A stretch of 64,000 nucleotides of DNA from an uncultured Nitrososphaeraceae archaeon (GCA_963765895.1 CAVXZB010000012.1:17508-81507), one strand, 5' to 3'. Positions 8,728 through 41,870 are shown, counted from the stretch's first letter. The notes: generated by a model not told the origin, from the sequence alone. A program made the numbers and translations.

Positions 8728-8828
8728 TATGGAACACTCCAGTTGTATCAAACTAGTATCTTAATAATACTTTCTATGAGGGAGTATTACTATGCGGTAA
8801 TATTTAATCATACAATATAGTATCATTA

Positions 8829-9614: not shown

Positions 9615-9634
9615 TTCAAGTATTCATCTCCATA

Positions 9635-10333: not shown

Positions 10334-10341
10334 ATCTACAT

Positions 10342-13281: not shown

Positions 13282-15145
13282 TTGATGTCAGAAAGACCTA
13301 TAGTTTTTTGCGAAATGCTCAGACTACATCTTGTACAGTCTTCAGAGATAACTACGGCCTGTGTCTCTCAAAATTTGTTCAAGCTGGATTATCCATATGG
13401 TGCAATTCGAAGTGATAAGGATTACCTGATTGCCAACACTGTTCATGATATAATGAGCTTGTGCATGAACGGTCCAATCATCGAAAATTGGCAGTACCGA
13501 TTCAAAGGACTATGAAAATCTCACCGAGAAAATAGTCCATGAATCACATGATATACTGAATGAAATTATTAATTATACACTAGATACTACAAATAAAGAA
13601 AACAGATTCGTTCCACATGATTTCAAAGCTCGCGTCAATGAGATCTATCGTGGTCTAATTATAGGAATCAGCAAACGGCTAATGAAGAAGCATGAAAAAC
13701 CTAATAGAATTATAACTGAGATTACAATAACGAATATCAAAGATCATCATGAAGGAAGAATTGATGCCCTACTAGAATATCCTCATGGTTATGGGATACT
13801 TGACTGGAAAACATATGATTTAAGCAAGGCTATTAGCGATCGCGAGAAATGGCAACTAATCGCAAATATTTTACTCGCAAATTATAGATATCGTCAGAAT
13901 GAAGATGATTGGAACAGATATAATTTTTCTTGCATTGTTCACAATACTGGAGCCTATTTTCCTAAACTTGGCATCATCAAGAAAGAAGTGGAGAAAGTTA
14001 AAATTAACAGAAAATTTGCTCATGATGTTCTTTGTTGTAAGTATGTACGTATACAGAGGCAAACATTTTGTCCTGTATGTGACAAGGGTTTAGAAGGAAG
14101 CAAAGAATGTCTTTTCTATCAGCTTGATTCTAGACTAGTCTACTATGGTAAACTACCCGCACAGTACGACAAGATGACAAGGCAATTTTTTGCTAAGCGT
14201 TACGCTATTCTAAAGGAAAGAGCCGAAACCCACTTACATAAACATGTAGCTTCCATGTTGATAGATCGACACGGCGAGGAAGAGGCCTTACGAAGACTAG
14301 AGAGAACTGGAGTAATTTGTGCTAAATATATTTATGATTTTGATGTTGAGGAAAGAGTGATTTTGTCAAGAAATGATGATGACTTTTCGTTGGAGCCTCG
14401 TAGGATTGTAAGAGTTATTGGTATGGAACGAGATAGACCCTTACTTTCGCGTATTAGTGAACAGGCCAAATTTGACACACTTTTTACAATTCATCGGTTA
14501 CCAGATAAGCTTGCTATGCTCGTCGACGAATTTGCTGATTATGGTGGTTTACGGGCCGCTGAAGACATAGCAGCTAGATGATTAAAAGTGAATAAGGATA
14601 TTGATATTGAATTTAGATCTATAATTAATCCAGATGAAGTGATTACTTGGGCAGATCTGAATGGTACCTAAGAAATGGCTGGTCCTAGCTCCTGGTATAA
14701 TGATACAGAGGCTAAGGCCTGCGTCAAGATCTGTTGTGAACTTAGAAGAGTAGCACCTTCCAAGTCAATATCAATTGTAACTAGATACACCGAACAGAGA
14801 CGTACAATAACCAAATATCTTCGGAATTTTGATGTTAACGTAAGAGTGTTGACATCTACTGGAGCGTTGGGAACACAAGCTGATGTAGTTCTTTTTTCCA
14901 TAGTAAGAAACAATCCTGAGAGAATTGTTGGTGCAGTAGGGTCACTTCAAGATCTGAATGTTGCAATCTAAAGATCTAAGGAAAAGTTGATAATTGTTGG
15001 AAATTTCGAAATGATGCTGAATGGTTATTCTAGTTCATACGATATGAACCACCGAATAAAACAGAACTTTTCACGGAAGCTTGCCAACCTAGTTGATAAG
15101 AAATATGGAGATGTTGTACAAGTCTCATCTAGGCTGTCTCACTAA
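13282..15145 (+). pseudogene. Dna2-like fusion: Cas4/RecB-type PD-(D/E)XK nuclease plus SF1 (Upf1-like) helicase C-terminus; internally deleted and disrupted
   Basis: EITI..GRIDAL..ILDWKT, Cys cluster CPVC-x9-C; then HRL, N..EA, ISIVTRYTEQ, ADVVLFSIVR, LNVAI*RSKEKLIIVG; no Walker A/B; frameshift and stops. Confidence 0.75.
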
Positions 15146-17817: not shown

Positions 17818-18037
17818 TCACTTTTCAAAAAACTACAATCCCGCGAGCGAAATTGAAAAAATAGTTAGAAAAATTTCAAAGGGACGCTAATTGACCATCA
17901 AAACAAATAGCCAAGCTGTCAATTAACAAGTATAAAAGATTCACAATGCTTATCCAAGACTAGCTCACCATATAAAAATATATAAACAAGCTGGCTAAAA
18001 TCCATGGAAGATATATATCAAATAGTGTTCAATTTCT

Positions 18038-18265: not shown

Positions 18266-18526
18266 CAGCAGAAAAAATTTATTAGCGGTTGCACCGGCAA
18301 GATATAGCTTACTATCAGCAATACCGAAGAACAAAATAAAGCATAATGGCATTGGCTTTAATTCTATGCCAATGATGGATCTAATTAGTTAGTTGATAAT
18401 TTTGTTCCTATAAAGTCTGCCTCATAATATGGATTTTACGTATATACTAATGTAGTAGTGCATGAACTTATTTTTGCAAATTGTATAATATATTGACCAT
18501 AACAAAATCAGAAGTTAATTAGGCAA

Positions 18527-18807
18527 ATGTCTATAGAAATAGAATTGATATAATTAACTCAATCTTAAATACTGCCTATGATAACGAAGTAAAACAAATA
18601 GAAATCTTAAATAAAGCAAACATTTCTCAAGTAATATTTAAAGGATATTTACCACTATTGCTAGAGTCTGGTTTAATAGAAATTAGACGACACACTGATA
18701 CTTATAGAACTACTGAAAAAGGAATTCAATTCACAGATATTTACGAGAAAATGAAGGATTTAGTATTATTGAATAATGAAGAGCCCAAAATATATTCAGT
18801 ATTTTGA
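18527..18807 (+). pseudogene. Archaeal winged-helix transcription regulator, start out of frame
   Basis: YRNRIDIINSIL...ILNKANIS...YLPLLLESGLIE...YRTTEKG; the ATG at 18527 is out of frame with the body. Confidence 0.7.
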
Positions 18808-19675: not shown

Positions 19676-19914
19676 ATGAAGAAATGAGCTGATTTCTAAA
19701 GAGAACGAGAGATGAGCAAGAAAGAGATAGACTAAACCTAGCAATTGTAGCAGCAAACAATCATTATGCTGGGTTGTGTCCTGGAACTGCTAACACATTT
19801 AGGAAAATGCTGGATTTGTCAGAAGTGACATGGAGTAATGTCGTGATTCCGAATACTGGGGAAACTGTATCTCGTAACACAAAACAAACTAGTCTATCGG
19901 ATTTTTTGAAATGA
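19676..19914 (+). repeat. DUF72 3'-end fragment, copy A
   Basis: MKK*..FLKR...DRLNLAIVAANNHYAGLCPGTANTFRKMLDLSEV...KQTSLSDFLK*; similar to the 3' part of 30322-30866. Confidence 0.9.
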
Positions 19915-20017
19915 GATCTAGGTTCAGTTATCCCATACTTATCACATAACACTGAAGATTGTTTTAATTTATAGAATCTCTCAAGAGTTAAATATCCTAA
20001 TAATTTGTTATTATTAC

Positions 20018-20428
20018 ATGTTAGGAGATCTAATAAGTGAATCGAAAGGCAAGATAACAAGTCAAAGAGTATTGGATGTTGAAGGTGGGATACCAAAAAT
20101 AGAAACTTCTTTCTCAGAAACAGGGAACTATAGAGGTGCAGAGACAACTTCTACTATAACATATTGGTCTACTCCTAGATCTGGTGGAGCGATATATGGT
20201 CAAGGTAAAGGGATAGTGATGAGTAAGGATGGACAGGAAATGGCAACCTGGACTGGGCAAGGCATGGGATGATTTACTAACCCAGGAAAGATAAGATTAA
20301 CAGGCTCGTTGTTCTTTAGCACATCTTCGACTGGAAAGCTAGCATTTCTTAACAACTTGGTAGGAGTATTTGAATATGAAACAGATGAGTCAGGAAATAC
20401 GTCATCCAAAGCATGGGAGTGGAAGTGA
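20018..20428 (+). pseudogene. Conserved beta-rich hypothetical protein with one in-frame TGA
   Basis: Frame continues past the TGA at 20270-20272 to ...LAFLNNLVGVFEYETDESGNTSSKAWEWK*. Confidence 0.75.
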
Positions 20429-20482
20429 TTGTTGGCAGCAGAATATCCGAAGCATAAAACTAAACGCTAGATGCATAGTATG

Positions 20483-20761
20483 CTAATAAAATCTTAATTC
20501 TTCCATATTTAACTTGTCTTTAATATTCGTAAAATAATCTACAATTTTATCCCTGTTGTATTTCTGTAATTTTTCAAACCTGGATACGTCATCAAACGTC
20601 TCTTTATCATTTGATACATAATCAAGTCCTTGTTCCAGCACCATATCAAACATTTCTCGATTTGTTAACGCTTGATAAAGATATTGTTTATTTTTTATTT
20701 GAACAGCAGATGAATCTTTTCTGGCTACTGCAAGGGCAATTTCCACAGTGAAGGCAGCCAA
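20483..20761 (-). CDS. Hypothetical protein, possibly 5'-truncated
   Basis: 92-aa ORF with normal composition, co-oriented with its neighbours. Confidence 0.4.
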   Translation of the reverse strand: MAAFTVEIALAVARKDSSAVQIKNKQYLYQALTNREMFDMVLEQGLDYVSNDKETFDDVSRFEKLQKYNRDKIVDYFTNIKDKLNMEELRFY

Positions 20762-20804
20762 TTTAAACAGATCTAGAACGTTAAACCTTGCATCCGATCC
20801 TTTT

Positions 20805-21294
20805 TCATTCTCGTAGGGACATTACAATATTTTTCTGACCTTGTCTGTTTTCTGGCATATAACTACCGAAATACTTCTTATTTAATTTCTTAGTTACTGG
20901 ATCTTGCCAGTAAGCATAGTAGTAAGGACCATGCTGATCATGATGACAGTTGGCTTTTTTACATTTGACATATTCTTTTCTTATCGTTGCATTTCCAGGT
21001 ATTGCCTTGAGTCTACCAGCACAAGCCAAATCTATTGCTTTAACTTTGTTTATGAACTTGGTTGACCTCTCAATTCTTTTCTTAGCATTTGCAAGTACTT
21101 TTTGTAACGAAGTTCGCTTATGTCCAAAAGGAGACTTACTCCAACCAGGCAGCTTCTCATGGTTGTTCTCTTTATAAAACCACGCTAGCTCATTAAAGTG
21201 TGATGCAGGACTAGAAGAGTTGTCATTATGATTATTGTCGTTAGATAGATTATGATAGATTATGATATCTGCCTAAACGCCTTGTATTAGTCAA
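20805..21294 (-). pseudogene. DUF6788-like Cys/His protein frameshifted by a 10-bp tandem duplication
   Basis: EYVKCKKANCHHDQHGPYYYAYW..KKY; removing one GATTATGATA copy near 21248-21267 restores the frame from a TTG at 21294. Confidence 0.65.
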
Positions 21295-21367
21295 CTCTTA
21301 CAATTATTTAGCATATCCTTATGAAGTTACCTTTACTATCATTATTCGTAATTTCTTCCTCAGTTAA

Positions 21368-21716
21368 TTATATTAGATCAACTAGGTATATTACAAAATG
21401 AAATCTAGTCACATATAAACAAGCTAGCGTTAAATTGCAACGTCCTTTGAATATCTCCCATCGTTTCCTCCTGACCTCTTCTATTCCATCAATGCACTGT
21501 TTGTAATAATACGCCAAATCAGACTTTGCTAGATCAAACACAAATCGTTGCGACAACTGTTTTAAAAACTTTGACTTCCCTACTGATAGTTGATTGGTCT
21601 ATCTTTAATTCAAGTGCTATTTCAGTTTCTGTCATTGACTGTGCTAGAGTTCCAACTTTTCTGCATCTATCTTCAATTTTGAAATTATGCGTTACCAAGA
21701 TTGTTATATGCATTGT
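21368..21716 (-). pseudogene. HTH protein of an integrated element (possible terminase small subunit), frameshifted
   Basis: KIEDRCRKV..LAQSMTETEIALELKIDQSTISREVK / SQRFVFDLAKSDLAYYYKQCIDGIEEV. Confidence 0.6.
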
Positions 21717-22051
21717 TCTATTCATGAAAGTTATGTTTATGCATTTTGAGGTAGTGATAATTACTACAATATAATAATATTGGGGAATATCCTATTATCA
21801 CGTATTTTGAACTAATATATTCATATCGCTATCCGATAAACTTATGATATTATCTTTCTGCTCGTCTAAAGCAAAGTCACTTATCTGGACATTAGACTCC
21901 TTTTACATTTCCACTAATTTTTACTAATCTTTTGCCCATTTTCATCCAATTTGATAGATCGATGATGGATTCTACCAACTCCTCTCCCTTATTGGTTAAT
22001 CTATATTCTACCCTTGGAGGGATTTCATTGTATGCTTACTTCTTTCGTAAG

Positions 22052-22282
22052 ATGAATAAATCTCTAGTTATTGCAACGGTTATTGCAACTGTTGCAGTAG
22101 GTATGATAGCGTCAGCAGCAGTAATTGGAGCCATTAGCCAAGTAGCCCATGCGGGGCCAGGAAGTTGTCCGAAGTGCTTCCACCATCATCATCACCATCA
22201 TCATCATCATCATCACCATCATCATCACCATCACGACGGACACCACGGCGGTCATGGCATTTGTCCGCCGAGGTGTGCCTGA
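22052..22282 (+). CDS. Secreted Cys/His-rich peptide with 18 consecutive His
   Basis: 34-aa signal peptide ending VAHA; mature GPGSCPKCF-H18-DGHHGGHGICPPRCA. Confidence 0.75.
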   Translation: MNKSLVIATVIATVAVGMIASAAVIGAISQVAHAGPGSCPKCFHHHHHHHHHHHHHHHHHHDGHHGGHGICPPRCA

Positions 22283-22667
22283 TAGGCAGACCTCCCACCT
22301 ATTTTTTGAAATAACATCAAGTCAAACTGTCTAACCATTTTTTTATAACTTATTTTTGTATTTTGTTGTGAAGTCATGGATGGACGATTATTATATTGAT
22401 GAGTATGAAGTATATTAGATAAGAATCAGATAGGTAATCCTTAACTACCGCATTAACCAAGTCAATGCTCCAATTATGACATTACAAATCCGAATCAGTT
22501 GTAAAGAAGAGTTTGAAGTGTAAGCACTGCGGTATGCCACAAACAGGAGTGTATCTAACGTTAGACGGCAAACAATTCGCATGGGTTGACTCGTGCATTC
22601 CTAACCAAGCACATGAGTTTGTGTAATACAATACTGCTTTTATCCTCGTTTTTTATCTATCCTCTTC

Positions 22668-23051
22668 TTGGACAGATGTAAAGGATTTTGTAAAGAAGAA
22701 GCGTTCTCTGTAAAGAAACTGCTGGTAGATTTTCAATACACGTATTTTATGTCTGAGTTGAAGAGAAAGGTAGCAGTTCACTATGCCAGACCTCCACGTA
22801 TAATCAACAAATACACTTACAAACATAAGCAAGCAGGACTCAAATGCTGTAAGTCATATGAATACATAACTGCTGAACCTATATCATTATCATGTTGTCC
22901 ATGTTATTCATTCCAATATTCTACACAAATACATGATAATAAGCGAGATAGACTGTTGAGAACAACAGGAAGCATTACTAAACAAACAGCACCAGCAAAG
23001 CGTCCTATTCCAATGCATGAGATAATAATATGGCATGAAACTACAACTTAA
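22668..23051 (+). CDS. Cys-rich hypothetical protein (degenerate zinc-binding family)
   Basis: CKGFC...KCCKS...CCPCY. Confidence 0.4.
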   Translation: MDRCKGFCKEEAFSVKKLLVDFQYTYFMSELKRKVAVHYARPPRIINKYTYKHKQAGLKCCKSYEYITAEPISLSCCPCYSFQYSTQIHDNKRDRLLRTTGSITKQTAPAKRPIPMHEIIIWHETTT

Positions 23052-23168
23052 AAGTCACAGATCTGACGAAAGCAACAGACCATAATGACTAATCAGATAT
23101 TTACATTTGTGAATACGACTATGCCAATAGCGATTTACAACAGAATTACTAGCAATTATCATTTCAAA

Positions 23169-23906
23169 TCACAGCACATTCTTTGCAGACTTTTTCTCAT
23201 AGTGATGTAATGCAAGTCTAAAAGCATCGAATATATCGTTGTAGGAAGTTGCCTCCTTGTCTAAAGTTCCTTCCCCTTTCTCCACTGCTGTTCTTAATGA
23301 AGTTATTAGTTTATCAAATTTAGGATTTATTGCAACCAAACCATGATTATCTTCTAAAAGCATTTTAGTATGTAGCAACATCTTTTTGTGCTCTTGAGCA
23401 AAATTAATTGGAATTATAAACATATCATTAGCAGTAGTCCAATCATGATCTGGGAAAGTGTGTTTGTATTCTGCTATTGCTTGATCATAATCTTCCCTTT
23501 CTCCTCGTTGTATCTTTAATGATTTTATGAAGGAAGGATTTGCTGCATCCACGTATATCTTGCTATTCTCTGGTGTAAAGTGAAAGTAATTGGTCAAATT
23601 CCATACGACATTTAACATCTGGTTAAAGTCTGGTCTTTCGAATTGATCTGCATATATTATTTGTATTTGGCCATCGACAAACTGAGTTGCAACAACACCA
23701 AATGCAGAACTACCATAACCTGGATCTAGACCTAAGGACTTCCTAGCAGCGTATGTAGTATTCAGATTACTTTGATTTCGCATATCTTTTGCAGTATCAT
23801 ATTCTACACTATATTTTTGACCAAGTTCTATTGCTTTTTCAATATCTTTGGTATGGAATACGTTTCCTATCTTGCCTAAATATTTACTACAAATATGAAA
23901 ATGCAT
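23169..23906 (-). pseudogene. Terminase large subunit, C-terminal nuclease domain only
   Basis: GNVF..LGLDPGYGSSAFG, IYVDAANPSFI, LDKEATSYNDIFDAFRLAL; ATPase domain absent. Confidence 0.7.
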
Positions 23907-24116
23907 AGGATATGCTTATCATAGGAAAAATACTTATTTTGTAATGAGAATTCCACTGTAGATAACTGTGCTAAGTATTTTGTCAATATCATCTCATTTT
24001 CATTTATTCTCAATCGGTGAAAATATGGATAAAATAGTGATGAATTGGATAATCGTATCTATAATACTCCCGTTATCGTTATTGGATACTGCCAGCTATT
24101 AGAGGGATTAGTAGGT

Positions 24117-24748
24117 ATGGAAGCAAAAGCGAAGATTCTGTTTGTTTTGATTGTAGGCCTAACAATGATAACCTCATCTGTTTTCGCTACTGGATTGTCA
24201 GTGCTAGCGAAAGAGAATGGAGGCGGTGGTGAAGGAGGAGGAGAAAGTTCTGGCTCTGATTCCGGTGGGGATAGTAGTAGCGGCGATAGTAGCGACTCAG
24301 ATAACAGCGGCGGTGGTAGTAATGACAATTCTCCTCATGACGACAAGAACAAGGACAAGATGAGAGGCGATACACAACCAAAACAACAACAAGATGATGG
24401 GCTTGTTCATATCCCTGAACAGGGTTGGGTAGATGGAAAATGGACTGGAGGCTCTGAGGAGATGTTTAACAAGGGCCCGAATGGTGATGGAAAAATTCCA
24501 CCTGGATGTTCTCATGGAGGATGCAGTCCCCTGTCAATGATCAACTGCCACCAAAACAACCTCCAACACTAATACAAGAAATCAACATCATTCTAAACAT
24601 ACACAAAACCTCGCATTCAAGTCATAAGACAGGAATAAGCAGAACTTGCTATGATGCGCTAAAGGTAGCATGGATGGATAAAGTCTATCGTGGTCAGAAC
24701 CAGCAAGTCTATCAATTTCTGAATAGCTGCCTAGGAGTCAAAAGTTAA
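24117..24748 (+). pseudogene. Secreted Gly/Ser/Asp-rich protein, probable frameshift near 24530
   Basis: Signal peptide and low-complexity linker; the overlapping ORF supplies a C-terminal CYDALKVAW...FLNSCLG domain. Confidence 0.55.
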
Positions 24749-24751
24749 TGG

Positions 24752-24880
24752 CTGGAACTCCTAACACATTCAGGAAAATGTTGGATTTGTCAGAAGTGAA
24801 ATGGAATGAGAGTGTTCAAGTCCCCACGGCTGAAGAACTGGTAACACAAAACAAACTATTCTATCAGATTGTTGGAATGA
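24752..24880 (+). repeat. DUF72 3'-end fragment, copy B (shortest)
   Basis: GTPNTFRKMLDLSEVKW...GTAACACAAAACAAACTATTCTATCAGATT...TGA. Confidence 0.88.
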
Positions 24881-25009
24881 GACACAGGGCTCAAATATCG
24901 GGGTATATGACAACGCTGTTGATTCAATTTAGAATATGTTGTCAATTCAAGTGTCTCAATAACGGAATCATCTTCACCAACATAAATGTCATTATCCATT
25001 ACTTCTACA

Positions 25010-25165
25010 GTCATGATTTCTAATCTCTTTGGCTAAGGCTCGATTAAAGTCTTCTAGATGCGTCTTGCTGCCAGCATACGCTGAGTAGTAAGGTGTTGTT
25101 GCTCCAACTAGTGATGTCTCCATGTTGATTGTGCGTCCATTGTCAGCTACACATTGGGCTGCTCA
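25010..25165 (-). pseudogene. Short-chain dehydrogenase fragment
   Basis: NGRTINMETSL...YSAYAGSKTHLEDFNRALAKEI (YxxxK motif). Confidence 0.65.
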
Positions 25166-25384
25166 TTGTATACAAAAAATGCGGCTTTAGCGTTGACAGT
25201 AAACATGATAATTTTGGTATAATAAAGCTTTTTTTAACAATTATCTAACATGGCTTAGAAAATTATTAGTATATTAATTTATAGATTAAACTAGGATCTT
25301 ATTATTAATCCTAATCACAATGTTTTTATCTCTCATTATTGTTGACGGATTTTAGGTATAGCAAAGCAGTATGCCTAATAGTGA

Positions 25385-27016
25385 GTGACCTATGTGGACA
25401 CAATAATACAGTTAGCAGTTTTGATTGGAGGAACATTAGGTCTGGCAATTCCTTTTGGGCTCTATATTGCCAGAATGATTTCCTTCGAAATGAGACCATT
25501 AGAGAAGACACTTGCTAAGGTAGAGAGTGGGTTCTATAAATTAGTTGGAATTGATGCATCGAAACAGATGACATGGAAACAATATTTCTTTGCTTTATTT
25601 TTGACAAACATGATAGTAGTAGTTTTTATTATTTTAATCCTGACGTTGCAGAATTATTTACCGTCACACCAAAACTTCAAAGGGCTATCATTAGATTTGG
25701 CATTTCATACAGCAATTTCATTTGTGACAGATACTAACCTGCAGCACTATGCAGGAGATCAACAACTTTCCAACCTCTCGCAAATGGTTGCCATTACATT
25801 TACCCAGTTTGTGGCTCCTGCTTCTGCGATCGTAGCTGCTTTTGCTTTTATTCGATCATTTATTAGAAAGAATTTTGGCTTAGGAAATTTTTACATAGAC
25901 TTTATACGAGTATTAATAACGCTATTACTTCCTGTAGCAGTAGTTTCATCGTTGGTGTTTATGACAACAGGAGTTCCTCAGACTCTTGATACAACTGTAA
26001 CTACACATACTCTGGAAGGGAATAAGCAGGATATTAGGGTAGGCCCAGTAGCTTCTTTACTAGCTATAAAACAACTCGGTAGCAATGGCGGCGGATTCTA
26101 TGGTGCTAATTCTGCGCATCCGTTTGAAAATCCCACAGGACTTTCAAATATGTATGAAATGTTTTTGATGCTTGTAATTCCTTTGTCGTTTCCAATTGCA
26201 TATGCTAAGCTTATAGGAAAATGGAGAGGGGCGTCGATTTTGGTAGCTATGCTTATATCATTTGGTAGCTTGTTGATAATAGCTTTCACAGCAATTAGTG
26301 GACCATCATTGCTAGAAACTCGATTTGGTAGTTTTGGTAGTGTGTTGTTTAATATTGTATCACTTACTACTAATACAGGAGCTGTAAATTCCTCACTTTT
26401 GGGAATGTCACCAAATGCAGTAACTTCATTGTTACTTGCCATGTTTGTTCAAGCAATTCCTGGAGCTGTTGGAACAGGAATGATGACTATGATTATCTAT
26501 GTTATTTTGACTTTGTTTATAGTAGGTCTAATGGTGGGCAAAACACCAGAGTTTTTAAGTATGAAGATTAGTCCAAGGGTTATAAAATTATCAGTATTCA
26601 TATTTTTGATTCATCCTGTATTAATTTTAATTCCAACTGTAATTGCATTCTCCAGTGGTAATGCTCAGACAATAATGGGAGAAGAAGGAGGAAAACTAAC
26701 TCCATTAGGATTTACTCAAACGTTATATGAATATACCTCAGCAGCAGCTAATAATGGTTCTGATTACTTTGGCACTTCGGCAAATACACCATTTTTTAAT
26801 GTCTCAACCGCAATAGTAATGTTTCTTGGTAGATATGCCCCTTTAGGCCTGATGCTAGCTATAGCAGGTTCATTTACAATAAAAGATAGAAGAGAAGTTA
26901 TAGAACCAATAAAAACGCAAGGACCTTTGTTCATCTCAGTATTGATCGTTATAACCTTCCTGCTCACAGCTCTCACCTTCTTCCCATTCTTAGTTATAGG
27001 ACCGTTTTCAATCTAA
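25385..27016 (+). CDS. kdpA: K+-transporting ATPase subunit A
   Basis: SFVTDTNLQHY, KQLGSNGGGF..ANSAHPFENPT, GLMVGKTPEF, YEYTSAAANNGS. Confidence 0.95.
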   Translation: MTYVDTIIQLAVLIGGTLGLAIPFGLYIARMISFEMRPLEKTLAKVESGFYKLVGIDASKQMTWKQYFFALFLTNMIVVVFIILILTLQNYLPSHQNFKGLSLDLAFHTAISFVTDTNLQHYAGDQQLSNLSQMVAITFTQFVAPASAIVAAFAFIRSFIRKNFGLGNFYIDFIRVLITLLLPVAVVSSLVFMTTGVPQTLDTTVTTHTLEGNKQDIRVGPVASLLAIKQLGSNGGGFYGANSAHPFENPTGLSNMYEMFLMLVIPLSFPIAYAKLIGKWRGASILVAMLISFGSLLIIAFTAISGPSLLETRFGSFGSVLFNIVSLTTNTGAVNSSLLGMSPNAVTSLLLAMFVQAIPGAVGTGMMTMIIYVILTLFIVGLMVGKTPEFLSMKISPRVIKLSVFIFLIHPVLILIPTVIAFSSGNAQTIMGEEGGKLTPLGFTQTLYEYTSAAANNGSDYFGTSANTPFFNVSTAIVMFLGRYAPLGLMLAIAGSFTIKDRREVIEPIKTQGPLFISVLIVITFLLTALTFFPFLVIGPFSI

Positions 27017-29416
27017 TGAATAATATGATATTAATGAAGATATTGAAAGACTTTAAAAAGAAAATAAGCCGGTTCGATAAAAAAGATAATGATATGTCTA
27101 TTTTGAGTAATAACAATAATGATACCAATAACGCTATTAATAAGTAGAGCAATGGAAATGGACATGCCGGTCATAAAATTAAGATTGCATTAGATTCCTT
27201 AAATCCACGAATAATTTTGGATTCACTAACTAAACTTGACCCACGATATCTAGCAAAAAATAATCCGGTCATGTTTACGGTAGAAGCAGGATTTATAGTA
27301 GTCCTTACTATTGCATTGCTTCCAAGTAATATTTCAATAGAATTTGTAAATCAAGGTAAAGCGCTATATTTTCAGACTGCGATAATACTGATTTTAACCG
27401 TCTGGTTTGCAACATTTTCAGAATCATTATCCGAGGCCCAGGCTAGAGCAAGGGTGGATTCTCTTCGTAATCTGGAAAAAGAAGTATCTGCACACAAGAT
27501 TGTAAATAATGAGAAGGAAGTTACTGTAACTTCAACTAGTCTTAATCCAGGAGACGAAGTAATGGTGTATGCAGGTGAAATAATACCTAGAGATGGTCTT
27601 GTAAATGATGGTAAAGCATTTGTAGACGAATCAATGATGACAGGAGAATCAAATCCTGTGTTCAAGGAAGAAGGAGATCATGTAATAGGTGGAACTAGAG
27701 TAGCAAGTGATAAGCTAATAGTAGAAATTACCTCTGAAGCTGGTAGAAGCTTTCTAGATCAGATGGTTAGTCTCATACAGAATGCAACCAGACCAAAGAC
27801 CAAAAATGAAATTGCCTTATCAATGTTACTAGCAGGATTATCTTTAATTTTTATAATGGTAGTTGGAACACTTTTATTCTTTACAGATTTTCTTGGATTA
27901 AAAGCAGATATTGCTACACAAGTGGCTCTACTAGTTGCACTTATGCCTACTACAATTGGTGCGCTACTTCCAGCCATAGGCGTTGCTGGCATAACCAGAC
28001 TAGGAAGGGACAGCATCATCGCAAAATCTGGTAAAGGAATTGAAGCTGCTGGAGATTGCGATGTTTTGATATTAGATAAAACAGGAACAATTACTGAAGG
28101 TAGTAGAAGTGCTGTAGAATTCATACCTATGAACGAATATACTGAAAAAGATATAGGACAAGCAGCTTTCGCAGCGTCTATCCATGATACAACACATGAA
28201 GGCAAATCAATAGTGGATCTTGCAGAAGAGAAAAAGTTTGTTCTGCCTCTTTTAGAAAAAATAATTCCAGCTAGATCCATTCAATTCACTGCTGAAACCA
28301 GATGCAGTGGTATTGAATTTATTGCAAATAAGGATGTTATACTAAATAAGGAGCAAGAAGATGAATTCCGATCATTAGCAAGAGATATCATTGGTAGTAA
28401 TAGTAGTAAGGCTACAAGCAGCAGTGACGGGGATAAAAAGGTAGTTAATCCAACAATAAAAGATATTGAAAGAGATGTAGAACGTGCTAGTAAAAGTAGA
28501 GTCCATGATCTACTAATAAAATTAGAGCAGACAAAAGGTGAAGTAAGAATTCTTAAAGGCGCAGTAGATATGATAATCGACTTTACAGGACCGAATGTAA
28601 ATCAAGCAGAAATAAAATGGAAAGCACAGGAAATTTCTAAGGTTGGTGGAACACCATTGGCAGTATCTATAAATAATGAAGTAATCGGACTTGTAGCTCT
28701 AAAAGATAATCTAAAAGAAAACATTAGAGAGAGACTAAACGAGGTCCGTTCTACTGGGATAACCACAGTGATGATTACCGGAGACAACCAATTGACGGCT
28801 CAAGTCATTGCCAGAGAAGCTGACGTTGATGAAGTAATAGCTGAAGCAAAACCTGCAGACAAACTAACCAGAGTTGAACAAGAGCAACTAAAAGGACATG
28901 TAATAGGTATGGTAGGGGATGGGACTAATGATGCCCCAGCACTTGCTAAAGCTGATGTAGGATTAGCGATGAACAGTGGAACTGCAACCAGCTAAAGAAG
29001 CTGCAAATATGGTGGATTTGGACTCTGACCCTTCTAATATAATGAAAGTTGTAAAACTTGGCAAACAGCTGCTTATGACACGTGGTGCCATTACCACATT
29101 TAGCATTGCTAATGATGCCGCCAAATACTTTGCAATTCTTCCAGCAATGTTTGTAGGAACTACTCCCAAATTACAAATGCTAAATATAATGCATCTTCAC
29201 AGTCCTGAGACGGCCATATTATCTACATTAATATTTAATGCTATAATAATACCCGCCCTAATTCCTATCTCATTGAGAGGAGTCAAGTTCAAGCCAGAGC
29301 CGCCGCAAAAGACATTTATAAGAAATATGTTAATTTATGGTTTAGGTGGGGCTGCGTTACCATTTATAGGTATAAAGGCAATTGATACGCTATTATCTGC
29401 TTTCATTGGTAGGTAA
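27016..29416 (+). pseudogene. kdpB: K+-transporting ATPase subunit B with an in-frame TAG (27145-27147) and a frameshift (about 28984)
   Basis: NPVMF, TGES, PTTIG, DKTGT, MITGDN, GDGTNDAPAL; C-terminal [14 protein letters not shown] lies in another frame. Confidence 0.92.
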
Positions 29417-29440
29417 GTATATAGAAATGAGGATGAAGCA

Positions 29441-29965
29441 ATGAAGCAAACCATAAAAGATGTGTTACAAAGTAATACCATACTGCTACGAGAATTATTT
29501 GATCAAAATATAAAACCTTGTCTAAAAGTCGTAGGACTCATGATTTTAGTAGTCGGAATAGCCTATCCTCTTATTCTAGTGGCAATAGGAGAGTTTGCAT
29601 TACCATATCAGTCCAGCGGTAGTCTTATAACTTTACATGGAAAAGTAGTAGGTTCAAAACTAATTGCTCAAGAGTTAAAATCTCCAAAATTCTTTCATTC
29701 AAGATCTGCCTCAGACTCGGCATCAACTGTTGATCCACACATTACTCCAGAAAATGCTTTTGCACAAATCTCTAATGTAAGTAAAGTAACTGGAATCCCT
29801 CACAATGTTCTCGAAACTTTAATTGATCTTAATATAGAAAGGAATAAAGTAAGTAATGCGTTGGTCTTTGCTCCACAATATGTCAATGTATTGGAAGTAA
29901 ATCTTGACTTGGTGAGACAGTATCCTGAACATTATCATGAATTCTTAATAAATATGGAGAAGTGA
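29441..29965 (+). CDS. kdpC: K+-transporting ATPase subunit C
   Basis: YPL..., GSLI..GKVVGSKLIAQ, SASTVDPHIT, YVNVLEVNLDL. Confidence 0.93.
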   Translation: MKQTIKDVLQSNTILLRELFDQNIKPCLKVVGLMILVVGIAYPLILVAIGEFALPYQSSGSLITLHGKVVGSKLIAQELKSPKFFHSRSASDSASTVDPHITPENAFAQISNVSKVTGIPHNVLETLIDLNIERNKVSNALVFAPQYVNVLEVNLDLVRQYPEHYHEFLINMEK

Positions 29966-29972
29966 GGTCAAA

Positions 29973-30059
29973 CTGGATTCAGTAATCACAATTTTTATCT
30001 CATTCCTTGTTGTATCTTCTGCTACATTAGCCTACTCATTGATGAGAGCAGAAAAGTGA
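29973..30059 (+). CDS. KdpF-like single-TM peptide (28 aa, CTG start)
   Basis: (M)DSVITIFISFLVVSSATLAYSLMRAEK resembles the KdpF C-terminal YxLxxxE pattern; GAGGT lies 4 nt upstream. Confidence 0.55.
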   Translation: MDSVITIFISFLVVSSATLAYSLMRAEK

Positions 30060-30321
30060 CTAATAATGTGAAAAGAACTTACATAGCATTGTTTGCATCT
30101 AATATTTAAAAATATCTATTTTATAATCTTGTATGTATTCCATTAGCTATTAGATATACTATGTTTGTCTACAAACCAACAGATCCACCGGATGCACTAT
30201 AATCTCATTCGTCCATTCATGAGTTGCAGGATTGACAATATCCAAATAGATCATAGTCCATCTTCTACGATTTCTTGCCAAATATTTGTAGAGGCGTATT
30301 AATCTACTCAGGAGGCAAAAA

Positions 30322-30866
30322 TTCGCTTTATTGATACAGTTACCACCTTCGATGGGTATAGTTGAAGGCATGGATGGTCTGAGAGTATTATCATACCTGA
30401 ATTAGATAGAAGATTCAAATATGCTGTAGAAGTTAGAGATAGTTTGTGGTTTCAGGATTTGGCATATAGTTTTTTTGCAAATAACAATATGTGCATGGTC
30501 TGGAGTCAACTCTCAGATATAAGAACTCCTCCAATAGTTACATCAAATTTTATCTACATAAGATTCATTGGCGATAGGACTATACAAGAAAAGGATTTTG
30601 GTAAGATACAAAAAGACAGAGCTTTAGAAATGAAAAAGTGGTCTAGATTTGTAAAAAAAGCCAAAGAAGAGCAGCGGGACAGATTAAACCTAGCGATTGT
30701 AGCAGCAAACAATCATTATGCTGGATTCGGTCCAGGAACTGTTAACACATTCAGGAAAATGTTGGATTTATCAGAAGTGGCATGGGAGAATGTTGAGATT
30801 CCTGATACCGAAATGAGAACATCTGGTAACACAAAACAAACTAGTCTATCAGATTTTTTGAAATGA
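30322..30866 (+). pseudogene. DUF72 (YecE-like) gene, 5'-truncated; copy C (longest)
   Basis: ALLIQLPPS, YAVEVR..W, FIYIRFIG, AANNHYAG; N-terminal half missing; frameshift near 30390. Confidence 0.9.
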
Positions 30867-31141
30867 GTCAGGATCATGGATCATAGCATGTCAAGGAGAT
30901 AGTGCTATAACTAGATTTATTAAGATACGAAGCTTTCTATCCTACTAATCAGACCTCAGACCTAGTTGGTATTTTTGCTTCGGCTTCCTTATGGCATTCG
31001 TATGTCGGTCCTACTTGCAGTGGTTGAAATGACATTGGGGAGGCATGTGCGTAAAAGCAACCATATTACGACTAAATCCTATTTGAACAGTAACTGCCTA
31101 ATTCTACTAACAAATCATGTCAAGTCATTAGACCTGTCTTA

Positions 31142-31500
31142 TTAGTTCGTCCCCCAAGGATTATCTATGACAAATCGCCAAGAACCATCAGACTGTTGAC
31201 GCAGAACGTCCGCAGATTTAGCAGTCATGTTAACAGGATTACCATCAGATCCAGTTCCACTGAATGACCATTCAGTAATTACAAAAGCAAGATCGCTTGC
31301 TTGAAGAACCCTCTTTACCTTTAGATCTAGTTTGCCCTTGAAGTCGATAAAACTACGTAGACTTTGGTGTATACCATCTGGACTTTTTGCAAGTTGTCCT
31401 GGTTGCGACACAAAACACGCATCAGCCTCATAGAGCGTCATAAGAGAATTTTAGATCCCCTGTGTTAATACCTCTAACTACTGAATTGAGCACTTATCCG
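31142..31500 (-). pseudogene. YybH/SnoaL-like (NTF2-fold) protein with a disrupted 5' end
   Basis: MTLYEADA...SADVLRQQSDGSWRFVIDNPWG; N-terminus disrupted. Confidence 0.75.
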
Positions 31501-31720
31501 GATGTCATTATTTTAGACAAAGGGCTTTGTAATAATTGTCACTTTAAAGTTTGTTACGAAAGAGGCCTTTTGATGAATTCAAAAAGATGAGCCGATAGGT
31601 AATGCTTGGAGCGAATCACACACTAAGGGTTGTATGTCTACACCATTTTGGATATACACCATTTGATACTAATACACAAAAACCTACAAAATGGAAGTTC
31701 AGTGTTCGTATTAACAATAA

Positions 31721-32116
31721 TTATTCGCGCCCACCATACATTATTCGGTCTATATGTTCTAAGAGCTCGTCATTTGTTATAGGCTTCGAATAAAACAGTT
31801 AGCAGGAAGTGAAGAAAATATATCAGAATATGACCCATAATACATTTGTCCAGCAGTAAGAAAGCATATTTTCAACTTATCATCACGTTTCTTAATCTCT
31901 CTATAAAAGGAAAAACCATTCATCTCCGGCATCTTTATGTCAAGAATTAATAGATCGTAGAAGTGAGGCTTGAAATTGTCTAGAGCAATGAGAGGATATT
32001 CATATGAATCAACTTTGAATCCATATTGTTCCTATGTTTTCGCTATTGCGGTATTAACATCGGGTTCATCGTCGACTACTAGAATTCTTTTTGACGTTTT
32101 GTTTCACACTTTCCAT
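31721..32116 (-). pseudogene. Response-regulator receiver domain protein
   Basis: RILVVDDEPD, LLILDIKMPEMNG, CFLTA; internal stop and frameshifts. Confidence 0.85.
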
Positions 32117-32201
32117 TTAGTTTCAGAATTGTTCCTTCGTTTCGACATCATCATGGATTATTCGCTTTTAGTCACACAATAAAGAATGATCATTCATTCA
32201 T

Positions 32202-32582
32202 TCATTTTGGATAGAAATCATGTGACTTATCTACTCTGCCAGCATATTCATAAATCAACAATCCGAATCCTACTATTGCAATAACAACAAACACTATTTC
32301 AAAGTCCATAGATGACAGATTTTTCATTTGGGGTGGAGTAGTATAGGGTAGTCTTGCTCCTCCATTTACTTCCTCTTTTACAAATTGTGATCCATAATAT
32401 ATAGCACCAGTAAAACCGATTACTGCCATAACTATACCTAAAACAATAATGGATTTTCCTTTAAAGTTTAGACTATTGCTAGTATTGCTGCTGTCATTTG
32501 ATTCTGATGGACCTTTTTTTCTTCCCAATCTTGTTATGAATCTAATATTACCTAATCCCTCTTCATGAACTGAAAATATCAA
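32202..32582 (-). CDS. Two-TM membrane protein
   Basis: Two hydrophobic helices in a 126-aa ORF. Confidence 0.55.
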   Translation of the reverse strand: MIFSVHEEGLGNIRFITRLGRKKGPSESNDSSNTSNSLNFKGKSIIVLGIVMAVIGFTGAIYYGSQFVKEEVNGGARLPYTTPPQMKNLSSMDFEIVFVVIAIVGFGLLIYEYAGRVDKSHDFYPK

Positions 32583-32650
32583 AATTCTTTATCTATTGAA
32601 CCTTGCTTAACATTGGTAATCAATATGTAATCATCATCATAAACTAAGCT

Positions 32651-32909
32651 AGGATTTTAGAGATGAAAAAATGGACTAGATTTCTAAAGAGAGCCAGAGA
32701 TGATGAAGAACAAAGAGATAGACTAAACCTAGCAATTGTAGCAGTTAATAATCATTATGCTGGATTGGACTGGAACTGCTAGCACATTCAGAAAAATGTT
32801 GGATTTATCAGAAGTGACATGGAATGAGGATGTTCAAGTCCCCAAGATAGAAGGAGCATCTGGTAATACAAAACAAAAATAAACTAGTCTATCAGATTTT
32901 TTGAATTGA
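32651..32909 (+). repeat. DUF72 3'-end fragment, copy D
   Basis: RILEMKKWTRFLKR...DRLNLAIVAVNNHYAG...FRKMLDLSEVTW...TSLSDFLN*. Confidence 0.9.
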
Positions 32910-33163
32910 GATCTATGTTCAACTAAATTGCGTTCAGATGCTCTATACCTTCAGATTATGAGACTATCATTCCGTTATGAAATCTTTGTTTACATCAGTG
33001 TCGTCCGAGTTATTGTATGCATGCACCGGCTAGGGACAACTGATGTCAAAGGCTCCGCATACATCGACCTATTATTGCAAGGACTTTGCTATTATTCCAA
33101 CTAAGAATAACTCGTAACAATATTTCTAAATACAGATATCCAAATAACCGAGAGATACATGAC

Positions 33164-33634
33164 ATGGCCGAGTTGAGTCTCGAAGGCCTATTTGGGATAG
33201 GTGAAGCGATAGGAATTATTGCCACTCTGTTTGTTATATTATACTTTTCAAGAAAACAAATGCAGAGTCTCTCAGTAGACATCCAGACAAAGGTTCTTAA
33301 TGACTTGGATGAGAAGGTTCACAAGATGGCAGAAATCATAATTGAAAAACCATCGATGCAAAATGTCATATATAAACTTGAAAAACCATCAGAAGAGTTA
33401 GCATTTGCGTATTATATCTTGTTTATTTGTTCTCATGCATATTCAATGCGCCAAAGAAAAGTGCTCAATGAAGATGAATGGAAAGGATGGTTGCTGTGGA
33501 TGAGAAACTGCTTTAAATATGGAACTTTGAGCGAACAATGGAAACTAATCCAATCAGAGAGATGGTTCAATCCTGATTTTGAGAATTTCATAAACAAAGA
33601 GGTAGTGGCTAAACCAGAGGCTAAATCGATATAA
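33164..33634 (+). CDS. Hypothetical protein with an N-terminal TM helix
   Basis: Likely start MAELSLEG; TM helix followed by a Trp-rich helical domain. Confidence 0.65.
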   Translation: MAELSLEGLFGIGEAIGIIATLFVILYFSRKQMQSLSVDIQTKVLNDLDEKVHKMAEIIIEKPSMQNVIYKLEKPSEELAFAYYILFICSHAYSMRQRKVLNEDEWKGWLLWMRNCFKYGTLSEQWKLIQSERWFNPDFENFINKEVVAKPEAKSI

Positions 33635-33670: not shown

Positions 33671-34771
33671 TTGATCACTAGGCAAGATGTTATAAGTATT
33701 ATTAATAAGTATAACTCAAAAGACATCACTGTTGGGACTATAGGTAGTCATTCTGCATTAGAGATTATGGATGGTGCTAAAGACGAAAATATGAAAACAT
33801 TGTGCATTTGCGAAAAAGGGCGAGAGACTCCATATAAGAGATTTAAACGGATAACTGATGAAATTGTCTTACTGAATAAGTTCTCTGATATAATGAGTAA
33901 AGAGAATCAAAAGAGATTACTACAATCTAATACAATTATTATTGCACATAGAGCATTTACTGCATATTTAGGTTATGACAACATAGAAACCAAATTATAT
34001 GTACCTATATTTGGAAATAGAAGTCTCCTACGTGCTGAAGAACGTAATGCTCATAGGAATCAATATTATCTACTTGAAAAAGCTAGAATTAAACACCCTC
34101 GAATTTACAACAAAGCATCTGATATTGATGGATTAGCAATGGTTAAAATTCAGGAAGCAAAACGAAAATTAGAACGGGCGTTTTTCTTGGTTTCATCATA
34201 TGAGGATTTTAAAAGAAAAAGTAAGAGTAGAGTTGAAAAGGGACTAATCGCGGAAGAAGACATTAATTCTGCAGTTATTGAAGAATATGTAGTTGGTACA
34301 CATTTTAATTTTAACTTCTTTAGTTCTCCATTAAAAGAAGAGACTGAATTTCTAGGTATCGAAAGAAGATTACAAACCAATATTAATGATTTTACTAGCC
34401 TATTGCCAGCTAAACAACAAATGGAAATTGAAATCGAGCCTCAAAATATTGAGGTTGGGCACACTCCAGCGAGTATTCGTGAATCATTATTAGAAAAAGT
34501 ATTCGAAATAGGCGATAGGTTTACTGCTTTTGTGAAACAAGAATATCCTCCTGGGATAATTGGACCATTCTCTTTACAAAGCATAGTAACATTAGAACTT
34601 AATTTAGTAGTTTATGATGTCTCATTAAGAGTTCCAGGAAACCCCATAATGGCAACCACAAGTCCATACACAAAATATTATCATGGTAATACAATGGGCG
34701 TAGGACGAAGAATTGCAATGGAGATCAAAAATGCGATTACAGAAGGAAGGCTTGAAGATATTGTAACATAA
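33671..34771 (+). CDS. purP: PurP-family ATP-grasp protein (FAICAR synthetase-like)
   Basis: IGSHSALEI.DGAKDE, FGNRSLLRAEER, GHTPASIRESLLEK, PPGIIGPFSLQ, MGVGRRIAMEIK. Confidence 0.9.
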   Translation: MITRQDVISIINKYNSKDITVGTIGSHSALEIMDGAKDENMKTLCICEKGRETPYKRFKRITDEIVLLNKFSDIMSKENQKRLLQSNTIIIAHRAFTAYLGYDNIETKLYVPIFGNRSLLRAEERNAHRNQYYLLEKARIKHPRIYNKASDIDGLAMVKIQEAKRKLERAFFLVSSYEDFKRKSKSRVEKGLIAEEDINSAVIEEYVVGTHFNFNFFSSPLKEETEFLGIERRLQTNINDFTSLLPAKQQMEIEIEPQNIEVGHTPASIRESLLEKVFEIGDRFTAFVKQEYPPGIIGPFSLQSIVTLELNLVVYDVSLRVPGNPIMATTSPYTKYYHGNTMGVGRRIAMEIKNAITEGRLEDIVT

Positions 34772-37643: not shown

Positions 37644-39194
37644 TGTTAGTATAGATGATTTACGATGAACGAAAAAATAAAGTATAAGCTAATCAAAGTT
37701 ATTAATGTATTTTTAAACTTGTTTATTATTTGAATACTATTTATAGAAACTTGCAATCGACGTAGCTTGGCGCCTCACAGCATATAGGATATCTAACAAG
37801 ATAATCAAGGCCTTGTATCGACAAACAGGCAAGATAAGCTCTAATTAATGCAAATTAGAAAAAAATGACTATTAACATACAATGTCAGAGAATTCCTACA
37901 GTCAATGACGCGAACGGGACGGACTAGAATGGATACTTCATTCATCGGCCTGATAATTATGTAATTGGGATGCATCAGGCACTAAAATATAATTCGCTTT
38001 AGAGCAACTATAAGTTGATCAACTAGGTCATAGGTATACTCAGAGTACTGCCGCAACCTGCAGTGAATTTCTACACTGCAAAGAAGACATTTTTTAGTGA
38101 TAGTCCCGAGATCCGACTTCATAGTATATATGAATCTCATTCATTCTTTTATTATTCTCCGGCCAGCGTTACCATCAGCAAAAAAGTGGTATACTATGAA
38201 ATTTCCATACCATCTTGGTAGTTAGCAATAATAATTTCCCATTACTCCAGATTGGTAATATTAAAAGGTGGGATCTAAAATAATATAAATTATTAGTAGC
38301 TCTTCGTAGCAGCCTGAATTCTTCGGGTTAATTGATACATATTATCATGACATTGACATTCGCAAATTCTTGTTATTTTTGAACCATGAATTGTTTCTAT
38401 TACATTGCCTTCACATAAGCCATGTTCATTTTGCATACACTTTTCCGATTTATACCCCACCAATTAGCTTCTTATGTCTATATTTAATATATACGTGTAT
38501 GTCGAAAACGTTTAGTGAAAATATGGTGGAAGAATGATAAATCTTTCTTATTGCTTATTCCGATACTGTTCCAACCCTATATTTGCCTTCCTTCTGTTCA
38601 CCTATAAAATGCAAAGCACCACATTTTTTACAGTAAATTTAAATATCAAAGTCTATTTTTCCTATTCTGTTTTGACATTATTATTATTATTATTATTCAA
38701 CCTTACTGCTCTTCATTAACTAATCTAATCTTATTATTATTATTATTATTATTTCAACATCTTCTCAAAAGTCTTCAATACCATATTAAATAATATGGTA
38801 ACATAATATTGATGATCCTTACGACAAGACTCTTCTTTCTTTTGCCTTGACAAATACTGCATAGTCAAGCCTTGCTATTGACTGTAATTTCTTTGGTTGG
38901 CGTTACTAAATATGCGTTACTATATTTTACATCATTTCGTCCATCATCTTATTTTACCGTGATCTTTATGTTCCATAATCATTTATCTTGTTCATTGCCT
39001 CGGTATTCATAAAGTAATTTTCTTTAGTAGATATCCATTGCAGTACGAATTTTAATCCATAGTTGCATGATTTGTAACCAGCTTCATATCAGTATATAAT
39101 ACTGTTATGTATATGCGTGTACTATTTGCAAATCCAGATTGTTTGAATTTCGTATTAATCGACTAAACTTGGCATCATATTATGAAGTGATTAG

Positions 39195-40370
<1,176 letters not shown>

Positions 40371-41066: not shown

Positions 41067-41870
41067 TCATATTGATGCTGCGGTATTTATTCTCACTTCT
41101 GAAACTTTTACAGAATTGTTATTATCACTGTCATTATTGCCTTGCCCAGATCTACCATAGAATGAAACCTTAATATATTTAGCATCTACTTGTGGGACAA
41201 TGCCATAATTTTCAAATCCGTTATTAGAACCAGAACTAGTTCCTTTAAGAATATCAGTAAATGTTTTACCATCCTTTGAAGTTGATATCATAAAGTTATT
41301 TTCATGTCTATCGCCTTTATCCCATGCAACGTCTAGGCTACACAGTTTCTTTATACTATGTAGATTAAGTTGAAGATACGTTCCAAAGGCTGTTGCGCTC
41401 CATTTTGTTTCTAGATTATTATCTATAGTATTGGTAGGCATGTTTTTATTATTGTCATCATTTATTGTAGGCGCATTAACAGTAACAGATGCAATAGATG
41501 CTGCTTCGCAATTACTGTTGTCACCATAATATGTCGTAATAGGATTGCTGAATGTCATTTGTCCTTCGATTGAAGATAAATTGGTTGTTGTTAGCAATTG
41601 GTTATCAAGCATCTTATTAATATCATTCCTATCATTATCATTTTTATGTTGAGACGAAATACCAGTACTGCAATGCTTCCCCAAACACAATCCTCCAAGA
41701 CACGGATTAGTTGTAAGACATGCTAGGTCTAACCTTTTCTTATTATTATTATTATTAGCATTTACTTCATGACTTTGATTTATTATAATGAATAATGTAA
41801 GGATTAGTAATACCACTAGTTGAAACAGATGGACTACTGAATTGGTTGGCTTATTTTTCATCGACTTCAT
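41067..41870 (-). CDS. Secreted discoidin (F5/8 type C) domain protein
   Basis: Signal/TM helix; IDNNLETKWS, ISTSKDGKTF, AKYIKVS, VSEVRI. Confidence 0.8.
   Translation of the reverse strand: MKSMKNKPTNSVVHLFQLVVLLILTLFIIINQSHEVNANNNNNKKRLDLACLTTNPCLGGLCLGKHCSTGISSQHKNDNDRNDINKMLDNQLLTTTNLSSIEGQMTFSNPITTYYGDNSNCEAASIASVTVNAPTINDDNNKNMPTNTIDNNLETKWSATAFGTYLQLNLHSIKKLCSLDVAWDKGDRHENNFMISTSKDGKTFTDILKGTSSGSNNGFENYGIVPQVDAKYIKVSFYGRSGQGNNDSDNNNSVKVSEVRINTAASI

Follow-up and report, generated by a model that had tools for sequence, protein, structure and literature searches.

How does one gene come to leave four damaged pieces, all in the same orientation and all keeping the 3′ end, among unrelated gene blocks in a single stretch of archaeal DNA? 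The question is raised by a window of 64,000 nucleotides (nt) from an uncultured Nitrososphaeraceae archaeon (GCA_963765895.1 CAVXZB010000012.1:17508-81507; all positions refer to the whole window), in which the repeated gene encodes a protein of the DUF72 (YecE-like, TIM-barrel) family. An initial annotation of this DNA had taken the pieces for a cassette array or an integration hotspot at the 3′ end of the gene. Here we tentatively propose that the part of the window from 17.9 to 32.9 kilobases (kb) is a decaying, recombination-prone accessory region around a multi-copy DUF72 family of soil Nitrososphaeraceae, and of the readings considered we rank first a history of homologous recombination between DUF72 copies and later decay by deletion, although with rather less than even confidence. 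The copies were located by an exact-seed repeat search (families D1, D3, D4, D5 and D13), by translation, by tblastn with a full-length DUF72 relative of 285 amino acids (P0015) and by nucleotide profiles, and all of these agree on exactly four 3′ pieces on the + strand. They are listed below with a promoter relic found by blastn with the upstream regions of relatives; L numbers denote DUF72 loci of related genomes.

17865..17962, + strand: relic of a DUF72 promoter and 5′ leader (TATA-box region), coding start missing
19676..19922, + strand: copy A, final ~75 codons and ~15 nt of the 3′ flank behind them; tblastn query residues 212-285, E=2e-24; groups with L005, L009 and L014
24752..24884, + strand: copy B, last ~45 codons, frameshifted; tblastn query residues 241-267, E=9e-6
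about 30307/30319-30875, + strand: copy C, codons ~100-285; tblastn query residues 105-285, E=6e-82; groups with L001, L002, L003 and L006
32638..32916, + strand: copy D, last ~85 codons; tblastn query residues 202-284, E=2e-19; variable end nearest L011, L008 and copy B

The co-oriented, 3′-anchored arrangement described earlier is confirmed by these searches, and so is the remark that no intact DUF72 lies in the window: neither an intact gene nor a coding 5′ piece was found in the 64 kb by tblastn, blastn or nucleotide profiles, the last giving four tail matches (E 5e-28 to 4e-84) and one body match. The description of all four pieces as gene tails holds for A, B and D but not for C, which retains ~190 of ~285 codons, about two thirds of the gene. 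A complete open reading frame (ORF) of ~285 codons is found in none of the four, and each carries stops or frameshifts, namely one stop and a 1-nt gap near the 5′ end in A, one frameshift in B, one frameshift and one stop in C, and one frameshift and an inserted stop in D. The cut-off of the Pfam DUF72 family (PF01904, YecE/TM1631-like) is reached by copy C only (29.4 vs 25.3 bits, profile positions 122-217); copies A, B and D alone have no Pfam match, their homology being seen with tblastn and nhmmer. Full-length relatives match the family with E=1e-45 to 1e-52, P0015 matches the structure of TM1631 (PDB 1vpq, E=2e-20), and the full-length members of the lineage have 285-291 residues, the C-terminal stretch common to the four copies being a normal part of the protein.

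Pairwise identity among the four copies is 65-92% depending on the segment, and the longest exact matches between them, 14-33 nt in length (18-27 nt between neighbouring copies), lie at differing positions. Copies A and D, once thought to start within ~12 bp of each other, begin ~25 nt apart when their 5′ ends are refined, and B begins ~105-130 nt further 3′. The flank shared past the stop is real for ~15 nt, which are loosely common to the copies, but the same flank follows intact genes of relatives, and it is the gene's own 3′ flank and not the end of an element. The promoter relic, ~90 nt long and 1.7 kb upstream of A, is 75-89% identical to five of the six full-length relatives queried (L002, L004, L007, L008 and L011), with no blastn match at 17865-17962 for the upstream region of L001. 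Small + strand ORFs, among them a Sso10a-family winged-helix gene at 18523-18804, fill the 1.7 kb between this relic and copy A.

The evidence that carries our reading begins with copy C and the DNA behind it, which holds the following features.

30876..31495, no strand assigned: conserved flank following copy C, with 92-100% identity to the sequence downstream of L002's intact DUF72
31142-31441, - strand: SnoaL-like gene, truncated, within the flank of C
31707..32136, - strand: response-regulator receiver relic, with homologues behind DUF72 pieces in L015 and L043

The 630 nt behind C, SnoaL-like gene included, are 93.7% identical to L002, and in a sliding comparison of the two loci identity rises from 72-92% in the part upstream of about -190 (counted from the stop) to 92-100% between that point and +630, a stretch that takes in the last ~170 nt of C. 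Since the DNA downstream of C matches the flank of an intact gene in L002, the proximal part of the C-D block is native neighbourhood and not cargo. The start of this block (SnoaL, then the response-regulator relic) is the conserved neighbourhood of intact DUF72 genes in relatives, and C is the remnant of a resident copy. The earlier statement that the pieces partition unrelated cargo is thus correct in that they do separate unrelated gene blocks, with a terminase relic between A and B, and incorrect for the first 630 nt of C-D. Mosaics are also found among the relatives, where in the pairs L004-L011, L004-L007 and L001-L006 the gene bodies are 87-97% identical and the tails 72-88%, with flanks that are diverged or unrelated; gene bodies 92-93% alike can be followed directly after stop +15 by unrelated DNA. 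Identity shifts at positions -190 to -120, in the most conserved DNA of the gene. Homologous exchange among diverged copies would be expected to produce such a pattern, and the position of the change points in the conserved 3′ block lends some support to insertion at the 3′ end.

That insertion took place by homologous crossover is inferred, as is the sequence of events, which would be as follows. DUF72 copies would exchange DNA with one another by homologous recombination and gene conversion; crossovers in the best-conserved 3′ block (~codons 226-255) would join gene bodies to differing units of tail plus downstream block. A block that carries a DUF72 3′ fragment would enter via a single crossover or unequal exchange, giving an extra direct tail, and later deletions would erode the 5′ parts, a dedicated integrase being unnecessary. 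C is a resident copy whose first ~100 codons were lost where a block carrying kdp genes abuts, and A may pair with the DUF72 promoter relic 1.7 kb upstream.

The behaviour of the family in related genomes was followed with a genome scan whose query was the C-terminal 89 residues of copy C. It yielded 170 confirmed relatives, all from Nitrososphaeraceae or related metagenome-assembled genomes (MAGs) and the best of them 85% identical, and 80 loci were retained. Close relatives contribute several apiece (six in SMAG_U3953, five in SMAG_U3842 and four in bin1032), with intact genes mixed with internal fragments. Pieces truncated at the 5′ end lie inside contigs in L003, L005, L013, L014, L043 and L055, and in other genera in L034 and L039, and 3′-truncated or internally deleted pieces are found in L063, L012, L017 and L010b. 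The DUF72 tail of L055 joins foreign DNA at a junction spanned by a perfect 41-nt tandem duplication (9936-10017). In a tree of the last ~230 nt of the copies, C falls with L001/L002/L003/L006 (support 95/95) and A with L005/L009/L014 (85/89), and B and D stand in an unresolved grade with L007, L008 and L011. With A, C and B/D in different groups, the four pieces are not recent local duplicates of each other, and they are pseudogene relics of at least three family groups.

Among 22 copies nothing is common upstream beyond a promoter region of ~95 nt, and the downstream flanks fall into a few shuffled families. The slot right behind DUF72 is variable among relatives; one flank family, followed by receiver genes, is common to C, L002, L004, L006, L011 and L058. 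The neighbours of DUF72 in relatives include restriction-modification, Hma/DISARM-like and McrBC genes, and DUF72 itself has no defence family match in PADLOC. The reading that we rank first thus sets a multi-copy gene family in a hypervariable accessory and defence neighbourhood. Conserved synteny of DUF72 with HtrA, HflX or TFIIB genes was considered and rejected, as orientations and identities disagree and these genes are probably paralogues.

Could the array have formed by erosion alone? A local cluster of full, co-oriented DUF72 paralogs might have lost its 5′ parts by independent deletions and insertions, the tails having no role in the gain of blocks; we regard this as somewhat unlikely, although it survives better than the other competing accounts. 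Relatives do hold tails made by plain deletion: relics of this kind occur in L043, L010b, L017 and L014, of which L010b joins codons 1-64 to codons 242-285 and L017 is also internally deleted. In L043 an inverted tail of a distant DUF72 type abuts the locus's own tail, head to head, an arrangement that seems to be what one deletion spanning two divergent genes would leave, as in the pair of L008, where two DUF72 paralogues with 30% protein identity lie head to head (8199-10273) and have a ~300-nt promoter region in common. The groups to which the window copies belong have intact members elsewhere, C retains two thirds of its gene together with its native flank, a promoter relic stands upstream of A, the 5′ ends of the tails are scattered across copies, and the region from 12 to 33 kb is full of gene fragments (a helicase piece, a short-chain dehydrogenase piece, a split kdpB, and truncated SnoaL and receiver genes), all as erosion would have it.

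What erosion alone explains poorly is the bias toward 3′ ends. The 3′ end is retained in all four window pieces, and no piece is left with the 5′ end alone. When proteins of 30-155 residues were counted in public data, tail-only short ORFs (those with a match to P0015's C-terminal 120 residues) numbered 1066 vs 359 head-only ones (those matching the N-terminal 120). Contigs of at least 10 kb held 31 tails vs 18 heads among the best 120 of each, and truncation at contig edges should hit both ends equally. In the tail ORFs sampled, the 5′ end varies and a frameshift within the tail is frequent as well; 10 of 12 tail 5′ ends lie within the last ~340 nt of the ~870-nt gene. Nor do paralogs usually stand in tandem clusters, for close relatives with 5-10 kb of flank have no second DUF72 copy. 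Second tails were found in five of the 80 loci, direct in L010, L033, L052 and L067 and inverted in L043. In L067, a distant relative, a full gene is followed by 3.5 kb (a membrane protein and two secreted paralogues) and then by a tail repeat, which copies 105-130 nt of the neighbouring gene's own end and flank, past the stop, at 85% identity, and neither this interval nor that of L010 contains an integrase. Tails strewn over the genome with random breakpoints and orientation had been named in advance as a refutation; the 5′ ends of the tails are scattered, and four of the five second tails in other loci are direct.

The next account returns to integrases, and the contents of the intervals are needed here.

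19922..20466, + strand: gene X, small, frameshifted; homologues directly behind DUF72, convergent, in L028, L034, L057 and L076
20486..20821, - strand: gene W, small; homologues (74-81% DNA identity) 1.5-2.1 kb behind DUF72 copies in L006 and L017
21932..22282, + strand: His-rich secreted peptide (18 consecutive His); its signal-peptide region is found again close to DUF72 pieces of L005 and L055
23169..23906, - strand: terminase large-subunit relic, RNaseH-like nuclease domain only; feature score 0.97, Terminase_3C/6C clusters
24488..24745, + strand: gene relic with 46% identity to L010 4252-4413; a homologue of 363 amino acids lies upstream of a B-like tail in L010
24995..25162, - strand: short-chain dehydrogenase fragment (adh_short_C2, E=1.5e-5)
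25385..29965, + strand: kdpA, kdpB and kdpC, with kdpB split into two overlapping ORFs at 28976-28995
32202..32582, - strand: predicted membrane protein, without relatives among the fetched loci
33671..34771, + strand: purP (formate-dependent AICAR formyltransferase type), where intact core genes start

As regards genes typical of mobile elements, A-B holds one terminase relic, whereas B-C holds kdpABC and C-D native neighbours, and no paralogy between the intervals was found besides the DUF72 pieces. The terminase relic, which has no Pfam or PHROGs match, is a provirus remnant, and a fragment homologous to it lies 9.5 kb behind DUF72 in L042. Interval A-B also holds small helix-turn-helix or zinc-finger (zinc-ribbon) ORFs, and a zinc-ribbon gene upstream of A has a counterpart behind DUF72 in L029. 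A small secreted protein rich in Gly/Ser/Asp and of odd composition is encoded at 24045-24572, and a His/Gly-rich peptide akin to the His-rich one of the window is encoded between DUF72 pieces in L010. In B-C the two kdpB ORFs match profile positions 19-389 and onward, and 538-674, which marks a frameshift in an otherwise complete kdpABC operon; the kdp potassium pump is apparently decaying already, and kdp genes occur in none of the 80 related loci. Behind D, an ORF of 196 amino acids at 33044-33631 precedes purP. Because purP lies within the fetched DUF72 flank in none of the 80 loci, DUF72 beside purP is not a conserved target site.

According to this second account, which we judge unlikely, one or more families of tyrosine-recombinase elements targeted the DUF72 3′ region and brought a replacement end, each arrival displaced a tail, and the integrases and most other element genes have since decayed. 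A precedent exists in Thaumarchaeota: a survey reports 14 of 68 integrated elements at the 3′ ends of protein genes, and tandem arrays as well (PMC6563490, 2019), so that the earlier suggestion of a route undescribed in ammonia-oxidising archaea was too strong. The co-orientation and 3′ anchoring of the pieces, the excess of tails, and the terminase relic with its small helix-turn-helix and zinc-ribbon neighbours would all fit, as would integrases within 10 kb of DUF72 in L009, L046 and, as a fragment, L003. Three junctions also coincide: the 5′ junction of B (24752), the 3′ junction of L063 (10138) and the right end of the L010b deletion (L010 5617) lie within ~6 nt, at an imperfect palindrome.

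The search for integrases covered ~12-35 kb with Pfam on 25 longer ORFs and 61 stop-to-stop ORFs, with PHROGs, and with tblastn using two related integrases, and found none in 12-33.7 kb, all three intervals included. The sole integrase-like piece in the window is an N-terminal (SAM-like) fragment at 8304-8657 (- strand), outside the array, which adjoins the 3′ end of a dTMP kinase gene at 8829-9614 (- strand). This gene belongs to a run at 8829-11892, all on the - strand, of two tandem dTMP kinase paralogues (38% identical) and then an exopolyphosphatase gene. An integrase or a fragment of one at each element and a short near-identical core at every junction, as expected of an integrative array, are both lacking here: the repeats are 130-570 bp long with 65-92% identity and have no common exact core, compared with a median of 17 bp, mostly under 26 bp, for the attachment sites (att) and target-site duplications given for thaumarchaeal elements (PMC6563490). 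The left end of the array has no full gene and just the promoter relic upstream of A, and the C-D block begins with 630 nt of native flank. A comparison of the DUF72 end with the sequence around the L046 and L009 integrases, and with the length of L042, gave no att-like repeat but only 8-11-nt matches due to chance, and PHROGs gave nothing viral beyond the integrases in the DNA flanking DUF72 in L042, L046, L009 and L003. Given these integrases and the terminase fragments of A-B and L042, viral DNA has landed near DUF72 more than once, a target-site relation being a candidate only. In the supposed core, DNA-level constraint was rejected, synonymous-codon identity being 0.57-0.79 there vs 0.59-0.86 elsewhere in six intact copies. 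The integrase hotspot of the initial annotation is therefore not upheld and falls short on several of its predictions, given the intervals free of integrase, the lack of a short identical core, the differing 5′ ends and the native flank at C.

Other arrangements at the site were considered. That A and D are the two ends of one 13-kb insert was rejected, as their 5′ ends are ~25 nt apart, their variable ends fall in different groups and their outer flanks are unrelated. Hairpins of attC type were rejected as well, the DNA folds of the four tails giving z -0.64 to +1.27 against 200 shuffles, and with no IntI-type integrase either, the marks of an integron-like array are missing. No inverted repeat was found within the tails, no tRNA gene in the window, and no Rfam match at gathering score in the whole window. 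A consensus promoter and terminator scan of 19-33.5 kb, unsuited to archaea, showed no enrichment, with 61 found vs 58.2 expected, and two terminator-like signals vs 7.5 expected.

A more far-reaching idea, to which we give still less credence, is that the conserved DUF72 3′ block serves as the portable recombination site of a gene-capture system in soil ammonia-oxidising archaea, tail-bearing blocks being cut out and put back at any DUF72 copy. Either the homologous recombination of the host or a site-specific activity not yet recognised would do this, the latter possibly with breaks at the imperfect palindrome where the three junctions coincide. If true, accessory genes (kdp, regulators and defence genes) would pass from strain to strain in cassette arrays built without an integrase. 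Finally, mis-assembly, that is, collapsed or chimeric repeats from a mixed population, is hardly credible even though many related contigs start or end inside DUF72 and the gene evidently breaks assemblies, since the copies differ by 8-35% and are too diverged to be confused, their flanks are unique, core genes in the same window are intact, and a 99%-identical copy of the C ORF lies on an independent 19.6-kb contig (P0031).

Our first-ranked reading, recombination between DUF72 copies and subsequent decay by deletion, has its own difficulties, which should be set against it. The coinciding junctions hint at a site-specific break, for which homologous recombination alone gives no explanation; the integrases near DUF72 in relatives, together with the provirus relic in A-B, keep integrase models alive; and the tail excess could be explained by a faster loss of promoter-bearing heads. 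Neither a circular or donor molecule nor a vacant site for the junctions of A, B or D was seen. The C-terminal query of the scan leaves 5′ pieces under-sampled among the 80 loci, the related genomes are fragmented MAGs in which several copies may be strain variants binned together, and in the tree 13 of 20 inner branches are unresolved, with only one clade well supported.

Elsewhere in the window, a superfamily-1 helicase (AAA_12) fragment at 14672-14968, with Mokosh MkoA as its best PADLOC match, is probably a decayed defence gene. Positions 1-8830 are possibly the remnant of an integrated element; they include an MCM/AAA+ ATPase-like gene at 2239-3063, and 709-984 matches DNA behind DUF72 in L042. 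An insertion sequence with a DDE transposase at 52547-53431 has 83% DNA identity to a copy in L043 (bin1032), with fragments in L063. Long ATT/TTA triplet runs at 38660-39672 and 41607-41763, inside or beside - strand genes, are probably poly-Asn-coding tracts.

The genomes of soil Nitrososphaeraceae are large and plastic, and the routes by which they gain accessory traits are poorly known. If DUF72 copies do anchor the exchange of blocks, they would mark variable genome regions in these archaea, and tail counts together with the presence or absence of tail-bounded blocks would offer a handle on strain-level gene flux in metagenomes. If the pieces are merely decaying paralogs, the locus would be a case of ordinary genome erosion, useful mainly as a caution that fragments of DUF72 interrupt assemblies and make the gene counts of MAGs in this clade too high.

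Among known systems, the thaumarchaeal elements are alike in host phylum, in direct repeats at the 3′ ends of protein genes, in arrays formed by re-use of a site and in the inclusion of proviruses. They are unlike the window in that they carry integrases or casposases and short att or target-site duplications, whereas the pieces described here are 130-570 bp long and diverged, with variable 5′ ends, no integrase and one supposed cargo block that is partly native flank (PMC6563490). DUF72 is absent from the integration targets listed there, the terms DUF72 and YecE occurring 0 times in the main text and four supplements of that survey (PMC6563490). Literature searches on DUF72 with integration in archaea returned nothing relevant among the papers listed, those on DUF72 in Nitrososphaera returned passages on DUF726 only, and those on generic island arrays returned nothing specific. 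Integron cassette arrays likewise have unrelated promoter-less blocks between recurring sites of one orientation, but here an integron integrase is lacking and the recurring unit is the end of a coding gene and not an attC hairpin. Tandem genomic islands at tRNA or protein-gene ends in bacteria leave displaced gene fragments, and they resemble the locus in their co-oriented gene-end fragments with a common gene-end boundary, parting unrelated blocks; islands, however, have an intact target at one end and have or had an integrase next to att, neither of which is seen in the window. Concerted evolution and gene conversion are known among dispersed paralogs, as are flexible genomic islands bounded by repeated genes. 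Although the excess and the co-orientation of 3′ relics in DUF72 are not a standard expectation of such conversion, the likeness extends to near-identical gene bodies beside unrelated flanks, to mosaics that change in the most conserved stretch, and to variable accessory and defence neighbours.

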